IMG/VR virus record: IMGVR_UViG_3300020044_000655
Coordinates: 1 to 24,066 of that record
DNA from: a virus
Lineage: Duplodnaviria; Caudoviricetes
DNA: 24,066 nt
Strand: one strand, 5' to 3'
Within the stretch, counting starts at the first letter, position 1. Every line of letters begins with the position of its first letter. Made by a program: the position numbers and the translations under genes. Below are positions 2,258 through 23,173 of the stretch, in pieces. The notes below the pieces were generated by a model. That model saw only the letters and a list, made by a program, of their open reading frames with translations, was not told the DNA's origin and ran no database searches.

Positions 2258-2284
2258 AATCTCCAAGGCAAGCAGTTGCCCTTT

Positions 2285-2310
2285 GCCCCTGCTTGACAGG
2301 GGCTTTTTTT
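2285..2310 (+). terminator. Rho-independent terminator after scaffold gene
   Basis: GCCCCTG-CTTGA-CAGGGGC hairpin followed by T7. Confidence 0.85.
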
Positions 2311-2320
2311 CGGCTATACT
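2293..2320 (+). promoter_or_regulatory. Sigma70-type promoter overlapping the terminator
   Basis: TTGACA (2293-2298), 16-bp spacer, TATACT (2315-2320). The predicted start near 2326-2328 coincides with the first RNA hairpin. Confidence 0.75.
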
Positions 2321-2327
2321 CCAAACC

Positions 2328-2432
2328 GTTGTCGTGACACACAACAAGTCAGCCGCTTCATTAAGTATCTTTCCCACTGAGCAATCGTGTGGGGTGTCAC
2401 AAAGGTACTTAGTCAAGCGGCTTTTTTGTTTT
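2328..2432 (+). ncRNA. C4-antisense-like structured RNA / attenuator
   Basis: Small hairpin GTTGT/ACAAC with loop CGTGACAC. Long helix 2351-2372/2401-2422 with one C-C mismatch, apical GCAA tetraloop, and a 7-nt bulge GTGTCAC (2394-2400) exactly complementary to GTGACAC (2334-2340). U-tract follows. Confidence 0.7.
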
Positions 2433-2437
2433 CACAA

Positions 2438-2606
2438 TGACTGTTTTTTCAGATTGAAGCGTGATGTGGTGGCACGGTTGCACAATTGGTGCATCGCCTC
2501 TTCTGTGGCTACTTGTTTGAATAGCGTTTTCTAGAGCGCATGATATACATCAAGGTGTGTTAGAGGTCTATCTGGTTCGACTCCAGACAATCTGAAAAAG
2601 CAGTCA
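2438..2606 (+). ncRNA. tRNA-like element with extended closing stem and oversized variable region
   Basis: 19-bp terminal helix 2438-2456/2588-2606 (one G-U). Canonical T-arm TCTGG-TTCGACT-CCAGA (2571-2587) and D-like arm CGTG-ATGTGGTGG-CACG (2460-2476). No canonical anticodon loop and no CCA. Confidence 0.65.
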
Positions 2607-2611
2607 AGACA

Positions 2612-2888
2612 ACCGTCAGGGCGCGTTAGCTGATGGTCTGCATGGACTGAACCCAAGAAACACAGGGCTTGGATTACACCCCCAAGATAACCCTACTAGC
2701 CTGTCAGCGAGGGACTAGGGTAGATATTGGTACATGGGTGGGACAAGCCAATATTGGATGAATCGCTGCCTCAAGGGTTTACTGGGATGGTTGGCTTTGG
2801 GGGGAGTTATTAGATTAACTACCCCTTAAAGCATGACCCTCTGGGTAGGGCTGGATAGCATTGGCTACCACCCTTGGGGAAGCTATGC
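2612..2888 (+). ncRNA. Candidate large structured RNA of unknown class
   Basis: No credible ORF. Hairpin 2612-2637, long-range closing helices GCATGG/CTATGC and CCCAAG/CTTGGG, internal stems at 2723-2755, 2801-2825 and 2852-2870, and candidate pseudoknot CAGCGA/TCGCTG. Confidence 0.55.
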
Positions 2889-2899
2889 CTAAATAAATG

Positions 2900-2930
2900 T
2901 TGACACACTGGGAAAAGTGATATATATAAT
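2900..2930 (+). promoter_or_regulatory. Sigma70-type promoter for the capsid operon
   Basis: TTGACA at 2900-2905 with AT-rich upstream sequence. TATAAT at 2925-2930 (19-bp spacer) or TATATA at 2923-2928 (17-bp spacer). Confidence 0.6.
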
Positions 2931-2938
2931 GTAAGCAT

Positions 2939-3072
2939 AGGCATATCTGGCAACAGACCCTTAACCGCAGTGGATGCTGTAGATTGGCTGGCTTAACCAG
3001 CAAGCATTCGGCCCTGACTCTCAGGCTTACCGTGGCGAGAACCCTGATCAATTAACTAAACGAGGTATCCAA
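2939..3072 (+). promoter_or_regulatory. Structured 5' leader of the major capsid mRNA
   Basis: Hairpins at 2939-2961 (GCAA loop), 2987-3001 and 3009-3032. Shine-Dalgarno GAGGT at 3062-3066. Confidence 0.55.
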
Positions 3073-3915
3073 ATGAGCGTTTCTCTATCCAACGCCTTTG
3101 TTACTCTGTTCGATGCGGAAGTCAAGCAAGCCTACCAAGGTAAGGCAATGCTGGTTCCAGCGGTTCGCCAGCGTCGTGGAGTCGAAGGTTCAACTGTAAA
3201 GTTCCCTAAAGTCGGTCGTGGTGTTGCCACTGTCCGTGTTCCCCAAACTGATGTCACCCCTCTGAACGTAGCATTCAGCACCGTCACTTGTACGTTGGCT
3301 GATTACAACGCGGCTGAGTACAGCGACATCTTCTCTCAAGCTAAAGTCAACTTTGACGAGCGTCAAGAATTGGTGCAAGTTGTTGCTGGCGCTATGGGTC
3401 GCCGTCAAGACCAGATGATTCTGGACGCATTGGCTGCTTCTTCTACCAGCTTGACTGTTGCCAACAGCGTTGGTGGTGCAACCACTAACATGAACGTAGC
3501 CAAGCTGCGTGAAGCCAAGCGTTTGTTGGACAAAGGTAATGTGCCACCCGATGGTCGCAATATCATCATCCACGCTAACGGTTTGGCAAACTTGCTGTCT
3601 GAAACCAGCGTTACCAGCTCCGACTTCAACAGTGTGAAAGCATTGGTGCAAGGCGACATCAACACATTCTTGGGATTCACATTCCATGTGTTGGGTGACC
3701 GCTCTGAAGGTGGCTTGGCAATTGACGGTTCTTTGGATCGTACTTGCTTTGCATTCCACAAGGATGCAGTGGGCTACGCCGAAGGTCTTGCCATGCGTAC
3801 TGAGATCAACTACATCCCTGAGAAAACCTCTTGGTTGGTGAATGAAGTCTTCAGTGCTGGTGCAATCGCCATTGATGCGGAAGGTATCGTTCAGATCACC
3901 TGCCGTGAATCTTAA
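3073..3915 (+). CDS. Major capsid protein (BPP-1-like podovirus type)
   Basis: 280 aa, strong RBS. Motifs AFVTLFDAEVKQAYQG, TSSDFN, GDINTFLGFTF and EINYIPEK are characteristic. Position follows the scaffold. Confidence 0.9.
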   Translation: MSVSLSNAFVTLFDAEVKQAYQGKAMLVPAVRQRRGVEGSTVKFPKVGRGVATVRVPQTDVTPLNVAFSTVTCTLADYNAAEYSDIFSQAKVNFDERQELVQVVAGAMGRRQDQMILDALAASSTSLTVANSVGGATTNMNVAKLREAKRLLDKGNVPPDGRNIIIHANGLANLLSETSVTSSDFNSVKALVQGDINTFLGFTFHVLGDRSEGGLAIDGSLDRTCFAFHKDAVGYAEGLAMRTEINYIPEKTSWLVNEVFSAGAIAIDAEGIVQITCRES

Positions 3916-21798: not shown

Positions 21799-22098
21799 TC
21801 AATGCTCCTTGATGATTAAGACCCGCTGTTTTCTTCCTGATCGACCAGGGCGGGTAAGCCCAGTGTCAATGATGTAACCCTTGTCCAGCAAAGACTTGAA
21901 TCGGGCTGTCACTGTAGAGTAGGGGTAGCTCGACAGATGAGCTAGTACCTCATCCTGAATGCATCCCTGTGGATAACCTGCGATCACCTCGTAGACAATC
22001 TGCTCCATGCTGGTCGTGTTGACCTTTTGAGCTGCTTCCTGACTGGTGTGGGGGTCGTTGCGGCGTACAAGTTTTTTCCAAATTGTGCCGAATTCCAT
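21799..22098 (-). CDS. Winged-helix DNA-binding protein
   Basis: Start corrected to ATG 22098 (RBS AAGGAG), 99 aa. Motifs RRNDPHTSQEAA and STVTARFKSLLDKGYIIDTG..GRKQRV. Confidence 0.7.
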   Translation of the reverse strand: MEFGTIWKKLVRRNDPHTSQEAAQKVNTTSMEQIVYEVIAGYPQGCIQDEVLAHLSSYPYSTVTARFKSLLDKGYIIDTGLTRPGRSGRKQRVLIIKEH

Positions 22099-22232
22099 TG
22101 AACTCTCCTTAATAGGTAGGTTGTTTGCCTTGCATGATTGCAAAGTGATAGCATCATACAACACCAATGAATGCTGGGTTTGTAGGTAGTTTCCCTAGTT
22201 GCACAGAATTAATGTGATATAGAATTGATAGC
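22099..22232. promoter_or_regulatory. Divergent control region
   Basis: Intergenic stretch between divergent units. TGATAGCAT occurs at 22146-22154 and 22226-22234, TTGCA-N4-TGCAA at 22130-22143, and TAGAAT at 22220-22225. Confidence 0.6.
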
Positions 22233-22442
22233 ATGAAACACACATTTACCAAACCCAAGATTGAGACTCAACAATTGCTTGTACGGATCAGACCGCATGC
22301 CAAGGTGCTGTTGCAAAAAGCCGCCATTGACCAGCGTAAAAGTCAGTCAGCCATCGTTGAGACTTTGATAATTGATGGCTTGTCTGCCGTCTATTCATCT
22401 TCTGACGACAGGATTCAAGCTTTTTTAAAGGGATCAGTATGA
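22233..22442 (+). CDS. Ribbon-helix-helix (Arc/CopG-like) regulator
   Basis: Beta-strand QLLVRI followed by two helices (LLQKAAIDQRKSQSAIVETLI); first gene of the divergent unit. Confidence 0.7.
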   Translation: MKHTFTKPKIETQQLLVRIRPHAKVLLQKAAIDQRKSQSAIVETLIIDGLSAVYSSSDDRIQAFLKGSV

Positions 22443-22648
22443 ACCAATGGATGCCACCCGAAGGAACCAAGATCACTATGCCCAGTGTGCGTGTGACTTC
22501 TGACAATTTCAAGTACCAGCGTGGTGCTGATGTGCAGGCTACATGGCGCAAGGCTGGGTGGACACCACCATCTGCCAATTTGCCACCTCCACCACCTGAA
22601 AAGGAAGTGGATCTGCCATTCATCAAGCCACTGAGGGCTGTCAAATGA
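22439..22648 (+). CDS. Hypothetical protein
   Basis: 69 aa with ATGA overlaps on both sides; FKYQRGADVQATWRKAGWTPP motif. Confidence 0.65.
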   Translation: MNQWMPPEGTKITMPSVRVTSDNFKYQRGADVQATWRKAGWTPPSANLPPPPPEKEVDLPFIKPLRAVK

Positions 22649-22905
22649 CGTTTGAGGATGCCAAGCGCATCTTGGATAGCGTGAAAGAAGGTAGGCCAGT
22701 ACCAGACAGCGTGGTCAACCGAGCCATGCAAATAACAGGGGATCTTGATGACTTTGATGGTGAATTTTGTCGTTTGTGGAGAGCCTGTGGGGAAAGGCAG
22801 ACCGAGATTCGCTCGTCAAGGGGGATTCGTCAAGACATATACCCCCAAGAAGACAGCGGATTGGGAGAAGGAGATAGCGCAAGCAGCGAAGCATGCCATG
22901 GGTAG
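22645..22905 (+). CDS. Hypothetical protein overlapping the rusA 5' end
   Basis: ATGA-coupled start and a plausible helical N-terminal 35 aa. The remainder overlaps rusA in another frame. Confidence 0.45.
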   Translation: MTFEDAKRILDSVKEGRPVPDSVVNRAMQITGDLDDFDGEFCRLWRACGERQTEIRSSRGIRQDIYPQEDSGLGEGDSASSEACHG

Positions 22906-23173
22906 CCAAGATCCTTTGGAAACGCCTGTAGCCCTGTCTGTGCGGGTGTACAAGACTATCCCTGTCAGTTGGTCAAAGGCCAAGCGCCAGCAAGCTGAGT
23001 CTGGAGAGCAAAGACCAGTAGGCAAGCCTGATTTGGACAACTACATCAAGGCAATCATGGACGCTGGCAACGGCATTTTGTGGCTGGATGACAGTCAGGT
23101 GTGCGAGTTGCACAGTAGCAAAGCATATGGATCGCCTCGCATTGAGGTAACAGTATTGGAGTTATTGCCATGA
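22748..23173 (+). CDS. rusA: RusA-family Holliday junction resolvase
   Basis: GEPVGKGRPRF, KPDLDNYIKAIMD and DDSQV catalytic motifs. Confidence 0.92.
   Translation: MTLMVNFVVCGEPVGKGRPRFARQGGFVKTYTPKKTADWEKEIAQAAKHAMGSQDPLETPVALSVRVYKTIPVSWSKAKRQQAESGEQRPVGKPDLDNYIKAIMDAGNGILWLDDSQVCELHSSKAYGSPRIEVTVLELLP

Follow-up and report, generated by a model that had tools for sequence, protein, structure and literature searches.

The window analysed here is the whole 24,066-nucleotide (nt) stretch of IMG/VR record IMGVR_UViG_3300020044_000655 (positions 1 to 24,066), a partial podophage contig of 24 kb in which an 815-bp gap (2258–3072) separates the scaffold gene (1463–2257) from the capsid gene (3073–3915). 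The gap combines an optional insertion of about 570 bp (2315–2893) with the usual promoter of the capsid gene, which is followed by a separate conserved leader RNA. The most likely explanation for the insertion, to which we assign a probability of about 0.6, is that it is a mobile, self-promoted, folded RNA module serving as a replication origin that is independent of an initiator and dependent on host enzymes. Its anatomy, its covariation, its mobility and its co-occurrence with loss of an origin-binding domain or of iterons were observed.

An original prediction, made from the letters of the window, had treated the entire gap as one self-contained RNA locus and had regarded scaffold and capsid genes as normally close neighbours. 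To establish the usual arrangement, 80 capsid relatives were taken, of which 75 allowed both genes to be measured. The two genes were 193–315 bp apart (median 245) in 67 of these and 615–713 bp apart in the other 8, so that they are not close neighbours in this family. The short form consists of a terminator, a promoter and a leader of about 125 nt. Positions 2900–3072 of the window correspond to the capsid promoter and its separate leader, which are present with or without the insertion, and the gap is therefore not a single block. The predicted left-hand terminator and promoter were both recovered by scan (2285–2303 plus a T run; TTGACA 2293/TATACT 2320), and the terminator is kept at the same place in empty-slot relatives. 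The predicted right-hand TTGACA promoter is likewise kept in relatives (TATAAT 2925, 19-nt spacer), although the scan did not list it. The features of the gap, all on the + strand, are as follows.

2285–2310, +: intrinsic terminator after the scaffold gene (scan); its loop holds the −35 hexamer of the module promoter.
2293–2320, +: module promoter, sigma-70-type, TTGACA-16-TATACT (scan, 11/12).
2328–2345, +: 5′ leader hairpin with a variable 7-nt code at 2334–2340 (code pairing across homologues).
2351–2429, +: C4-like long hairpin with a complementary bulge at 2394–2400 and a U run at its end, a predicted attenuator (fold, homologues).
2439–2605, +: optional tRNA-like cassette inside a closing stem (homologue comparison; not called by ARAGORN).
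2608–2654, +: exchangeable 5′ module of the core (homologue comparison).
2656–2775, +: conserved core with P2 (CACCC loop), P3, pseudoknot 1 (2703–2710/2763–2769) and P4 (GGTGG loop, 2736–2742) (alignment).
2781–2845, +: variable hairpin (alignment).
2846–2896, +: 3′ end with CCACC at 2868–2872, a purine-rich stretch, ATG at 2885–2887 and an A-rich tail (alignment).
2900–2930, +: capsid promoter TTGACA...TATAAT, outside the insertion (sequence; kept in empty-slot relatives).
2939–3060, +: separate conserved structured leader of the capsid gene (covariation).

As predicted, the gap contains no credible open reading frame (ORF). Neither of two ORFs overlapping it matched in a PHROG search, and no reading frame was conserved over 96 homologous cores, being open in 12 of 96 on the + strand and in none of 96 on the − strand. 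Nucleotides 2320–2900 fold with −220 kcal/mol (z = −5.55), and none of 100 shuffles folded equally low. The three predicted parts (C4-like, tRNA-like and large multi-helix) all proved to be real; together with the lack of a coding signal and the strong covariation they support the proposed unit of about 560 nt transcribed from a host-type promoter. Rfam searches of the window (gathering threshold and E 10) and of five other loci returned nothing real, and ARAGORN returned nothing. A BLAST search of the block against GenBank phages identified one uncultured record only, a search against plasmids gave chance matches only, and two pattern scans of GTDB genomes found neither a host copy nor a prophage copy. 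We did not find a description of the module RNA in the literature; PMC10690425, with over ten thousand viral RNA candidates, may list its motifs without a function.

The core of the module, about 280 nt in length, is doubly pseudoknotted and shows the compensatory changes that the original prediction had proposed to look for in homologues. A search with an exact pattern of 35 nt located it in 81 stretches of viral and 90 of metagenome sequence; all of the 80 metagenome stretches examined were phage-like and none was plasmid-like. Covariation was assessed with 71 distinct parsed cores (7 loci were unparsed), a set in which relatedness was not controlled. P2, P3, P4 and the pseudoknot each pair better with their own than with a foreign partner (0/500 permutations each). 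The long-range pairing between the P4 loop and its 3′-end partner, CCACC at 2868–2872 in the window, covaries without exception, with GGTGG/CCACC in 67 and GGTGA/TCACC in 4 of the 71 cores. UNCG- and GNRA-type tetraloops and G-U pairs are present in homologues. The 50 nt at the 5′ end of the core can be exchanged: a different 5′ module stands on the same core in 18 loci and also on an unrelated core. Each genome holds one copy of the module, and its G skew is positive in 69 of 72 cases. Scans identified no terminator at the 3′ end and, by consensus, no minus-strand promoter inside the module; one weak match lies at 2953–2926. Contigs from RNA runs were all sequences of relatives, came without a DNA control and covered neighbouring genes as well.

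The position of the core in other genomes points towards a role in replication. Among 82 core loci surveyed, duplicates included, 56 carry within their flanks a gene of about 120 amino acids (aa) that matches only the C-terminal half of phage initiators (hereafter half-initiator), typically with cro upstream and RusA downstream. Of the remainder, 16 occupy the capsid slot, 5 a later slot and 5 are incomplete or other. The block is thus a mobile insertion usually found in the replication-initiator slot, a property that the original prediction missed and that changes its likely function. All 12 matches among 32 whole records cover only positions 170–270 of the 288 in the initiator profile. We also collected 74 new half-initiator loci from the best 80 of 520. 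Exactly one of three mutually unrelated structured cores is present in 72 of them (22/22/28), with the third-core model built from six of the same 74 loci, and the other two end within 120 nt. None of the three cores turned up in the 98 loci or pieces examined as controls (1.08 Mb). The model of the first core matched none of 18 records with a full initiator, of which 8 are at least 90% complete, whereas the positive control was recovered in 5 of 5. For nine near-complete carriers, 96 of the 131 remaining protein clusters of at least 125 aa were scanned, and no initiator, primase, helicase or polymerase was among these 96; DnaB is absent from 23 of 24 carriers. In the window itself, the divergent early region from a cro-like gene to RusA (21799–23173) contains no replication gene between them.

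Several observations were made on these loci in passing. The second unrelated core is about 230 nt long and uses the same slots; it was seen in the capsid slot of L247, where an HNH-like ORF follows it, in L032 and L050, and in 22 loci among L335–L408. The third core (L344, L353, L359, L373, L382–L388) lies upstream of the half-initiator gene and ends in a long G-rich tract that is reminiscent of R-loop or G-quadruplex-forming primer ends. Genes resembling queuine tRNA-ribosyltransferase lie close downstream of the module in L085, L122, L125 and L151. A fold comparison with a model of the half-initiator gave no match above noise: the model reached a predicted local distance difference test score of 72.6, its best Z of 5.1 was within noise, and Z values of 2.7–3.1 for the DnaD domain and G39P are no evidence.

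A corresponding association was found within the family of the window. An HTH_36 gene matching O-like initiators lies about 8 kb upstream of the capsid slot in relatives. In all 8 carriers this initiator-like gene is 204–219 aa long from the first conserved motif and has no iterons; six carrier genomes were scanned in full and contain no copy of the iteron motif. One of the carriers holds an unrelated core in its capsid slot. In 19 of 22 empty-slot relatives the gene is 308–341 aa long, and 18 of these 19 long genes contain iterons in the form of inverted repeats, which are often accompanied by DnaA-like boxes and by an AT-rich stretch. Next to the short gene of the three empty-slot exceptions lies either an array of DnaA boxes or a different promoter-led element. 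Fisher's test gives p = 3e-5 for the association of short gene and module, although the cases are not independent.

Dense DnaA-box-like repeats directly follow the short initiator-like gene of L052 (~1030–1130) and may be a phage origin of the oriC type. G028 (~19850), G029 (~24950) and G023 (~31370) contain a fourth structured element led by a promoter; in G028 and G029 it lies beside short iteron-less initiator-like genes, and scans of iteron-type and module-bearing genomes did not find it. Strand skew was tried as a sign of replication direction and rejected, as G and T skew are slightly higher in carriers, not so per gene, and are confounded by G+C content.

The leader of the module carries a variable pairing code. 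Its transcription start is inferred near 2327, and in the homologues compared a hexamer resembling a −10 element stands ahead of the leader. The leader pattern parsed 38 leaders and missed 20; a further 18 are of another type. In all 38 the 7–8-nt code is complementary to the leader's own downstream hairpin, and 18 different codes were found; a code paired with the hairpin of another leader in 5% of cross pairs, which is the chance level. The 24-kb partial genome contains the 7-nt code once and its complement once, with no second target. These results fit the antisense or attenuation switch that had been proposed for the leader. In 18 distinct loci (among them L090, L092, L096, L099, L103, L112 and L113) the same core follows an alternative leader RNA that has no relation to the C4-like leader.

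The tRNA-like cassette consists of an acceptor stem (2450–2456/2588–2594), a D-like arm, a T loop (2576–2582) and an enlarged middle. The acceptor stem has 7 bp and stacks on a T arm of 5 bp, whose loop is 7 nt long (2450–2595), and the acceptor stem is changed on both sides in L087 and L156. ARAGORN and Rfam detected no standard cloverleaf in this 146-nt segment, which has no CCA and no 7-nt anticodon loop. Rather than being integral, as first thought, the tRNA mimic is optional: an insert of 190–212 nt is present in only 5 of 38 parsed leaders, the inserts are not all alike, and the cassette is missing from most carriers. Other unrelated folded cassettes, some of them tRNA-like, stand between leader and core in L083, L088, L093 and L054.

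We infer every biochemical step of the origin model by applying the steps of ColE1 priming, established for that plasmid (PMC3167613, PMC5778457, PMC11253446 and PMC4743918), by analogy. Host RNA polymerase would start near 2327, and pairing of the 7-nt code, either in cis or in trans with the C4-like RNA of a sister phage, would determine whether transcription stops at the U run or reads through. The read-through RNA would fold into the pseudoknotted core and stay hybridised to the DNA near 2870–2895, where RNase H would trim the hybrid and DNA polymerase I would then be primed. Finally, as happens in ColE1, the displaced strand would receive DnaB from the host restart primosome (PriA-type).

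The module resembles ColE1 origin sequences over short stretches, which is no more than suggestive. A matrix of 48 module 3′ ends ranked ColE1 position 1179 first of 13,254 positions. We take this position to be the RNA-DNA switch. The best local match between the module and ColE1 is at 2608–2630, near the ColE1 oriT (22/25 columns; score 34, compared to 30 for the best of 60 shuffles), and the motif also occurs in an IncF plasmid. The matched ColE1 stretch is presumably the ssiB/pas-BH primosome site; PMC3167613 states of ssiB only a position further downstream.

A number of results weigh against the origin model. The 3′-end matrix test was post hoc, its runner-up was a site with an upstream purine stretch and an ATG, and ColE1 position 1179 drops from the top five once the A-rich tail is removed. 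Homology to ColE1 RNA II, which had been suspected from ordered short motifs seen by eye, was rejected since it failed both profile and alignment tests, with no profile match and an alignment z of −0.65 to 2.65 (0.35 for the window). DnaB is equally absent from 9 of 9 iteron-type genomes. A DUF1376 initiator with repeats is retained, along with a DnaB-like helicase, in at least three carriers (L094, L115 and L139), so that the module is not always an origin replacement; in these three it lies in the later slot, which accounts for 5 of 82 viral and up to 13 of 80 metagenome loci, and it is possibly a second origin there. Carriers have a lower G+C content (0.42 vs 0.62 at fourfold sites), and host lineage therefore confounds the link between module and initiator. 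Because the window ends before its own initiator-like gene, the state of that gene is deduced by comparison with relatives. Lastly, the carriers form one clade on the initiator tree, where the short initiator arose once. However, 3 changes are needed to place them on the capsid tree, and likewise on a quick tree of the terminase, with two of the changes forced by strong branches, and the link has thus outlasted exchange of the intervening genes.

The 3′ end raises a further objection. All 67 distinct ends have a start codon at a fixed place, adjacent to the partner sequence of the pseudoknot, an arrangement that fits a translational switch of the repZ type. The module would then be a cis-acting expression switch, an attenuator combined with a long-range pseudoknot that frees the ribosome-binding site of the next gene, as in IncI-alpha repZ, for which the mechanism is known (PMC8383071). 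We consider this unlikely, although it accounts well for the perfect covariation of the P4 loop with the 5 nt that directly precede the purine-rich stretch and the start codon, and for a codon that is only ever ATG, GTG or TTG and often begins the half-initiator. The codon opens an ORF of at least 15 codons in 24 of 44 non-capsid loci but in only 1 of 23 capsid loci; the ORF is shorter in the other 22 (a 3-codon minigene in the window), and the capsid gene is equipped with a separate promoter and leader. In addition, the downstream gene varies by locus, the half-initiator lies upstream in many, and a switch leaves both the loss of iterons 8 kb away and the replication start site unexplained. 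Switch and origin are compatible, as priming and the translation of the half-initiator could be coupled in a single RNA.

It is improbable that the module is a stand-alone, trans-acting large RNA of the GOLLD/ROOL kind, perhaps working with the half-initiator protein and having no role as a primer. Its own promoter, ornate fold, optional tRNA-like cassettes and movement as a unit among at least three slots would all be expected of such an RNA, and in the RNA data of two studies, contigs of relatives stop 10 and 43 nt beyond the core, a weak sign in its favour. However, there is no 3′ terminator, the module is absent from iteron-type relatives, and the three unrelated cores exclude one another in one slot, as expected of interchangeable cis elements. 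Quite improbable, too, is a folded single-stranded DNA origin, in which transcription only opens the duplex and host PriA or primase recognises the displaced strand. Such an origin shares its genomic associations with the RNA origin that we favour, and the 5′ module matches the ColE1 stretch that is presumably a primosome assembly site; against this, the UNCG and GNRA tetraloops and G-U pairs favour RNA, and the 5′ module is replaceable by unrelated ones. Very improbable is a selfish mobile RNA element or ribozyme inserting behind terminators and promoters: patchy presence among close relatives, the HNH-like ORF with a different core in the same slot of L247 and a bulged A in the 3′ helix, similar to that of group II intron domain 6, would suit it, whereas the module is single-copy in each genome, is never within a gene in the loci examined, has no Rfam intron or ribozyme match and showed by eye no domain-5 or group I core motif.

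If the module is an RNA-primed origin, a broader scenario can be put forward tentatively, as slightly short of an even bet. A widespread group of aquatic tailed phages may have swapped a lambda-type, protein-bound origin for plug-in RNA origins. Pseudoknotted primer RNAs of three or more unrelated kinds, which could replace one another behind a C4-like leader whose 7-nt code determines incompatibility, would drive lytic replication with host enzymes only, the stand-alone half-initiator being a helicase-loading adaptor. In many small uncultured phages no replication gene can be recognised, and how their DNA synthesis begins is unexplained. The module provides a concrete origin candidate of less than 600 bp, together with two further unrelated RNA families in the same slot. 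If the model is correct, RNA-primed initiation extends from ColE1 plasmids and mycobacterial plasmid prophages to common aquatic phages in their lytic growth, and small origins with a programmable 7-nt compatibility code would become available.

The leader of the capsid gene (2939–3060) is a distinct RNA of four hairpins that is found family-wide, with or without the insertion. In 25 sequences, 16 of 25 pairs change on both sides and 95% of cells are paired; none of 500 shuffles gave covariation as high, and slid controls were far lower. It has no Rfam match and is a candidate for capsid autoregulation or antitermination. At the other end of the window, an AT-rich ORF broken by the contig end (23805–24066) gave a weak GIY-YIG match (E 0.008) and is probably a homing endonuclease.

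Among known systems, the leader is closest to the C4 RNA of P1 and P7 (RF01695) and the CI RNA of P4, with which it shares a leader target and a downstream hairpin with a variable, complementary 7–8-nt loop, as well as a position near cro in most carriers. C4 RNA is characterised by a variable 7–11-nt specificity loop complementary to an upstream target (PMC5320573), and the leader has such a loop. It is predicted to form one long bulged hairpin rather than the three stem-loops of C4, and it is followed by a non-coding core instead of icd/ant. The Rfam C4 model (RF01695) gave no match even at E 10. Judged by its sequence, the leader appears to work like C4 RNA and yet falls outside the Rfam C4 family by score.

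The IncI-alpha plasmid ColIb-P9 has, according to PMC8383071, a repZ leader with long-range loop pairing just upstream of the ribosome-binding site, and in the module the pairing likewise often precedes a replication gene. The module differs in its much larger fold, in being kept without a following gene, and in that no leader peptide or Inc RNA was identified. The RNA-based origins of non-RepA prophages of cluster A mycobacteriophages (PMC7157519) offer a parallel, in that some of the related phages have a protein initiator and others, in its stead, a transcribed non-coding region of about 600 bp. There is no sequence match to these phages and no parABS beside the module in annotated loci. 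The mycobacteriophage RNA origin serves the plasmid prophage only, whereas no other replication system is evident in the module phages, so that the module would have to serve lytic growth. ColE1 RNA II/RNA I offers the most points of likeness: a predicted transcript of about 560 nt from a host promoter, a G-rich 3′ part without a terminator, a similar 19-nt 3′ end, a pas-like stretch and an antisense-type specificity code. ColE1 also has no origin-binding protein; for the module phages the picture is mixed, as early-slot carriers apparently need no such initiator of their own, capsid-slot carriers keep a short helix-turn-helix protein and at least three carriers keep a full initiator. The module differs from ColE1 in its predicted control by a C4-like leader, with no RNA I counter-promoter found by consensus scan, in having two pseudoknots and a pas-like stretch within the transcript, in often being accompanied by a half-initiator protein and in residing on phage genomes. 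The module is thus a member of neither system by sequence, yet in its proposed working it would resemble both ColE1 RNA II and the mycobacteriophage RNA origins.
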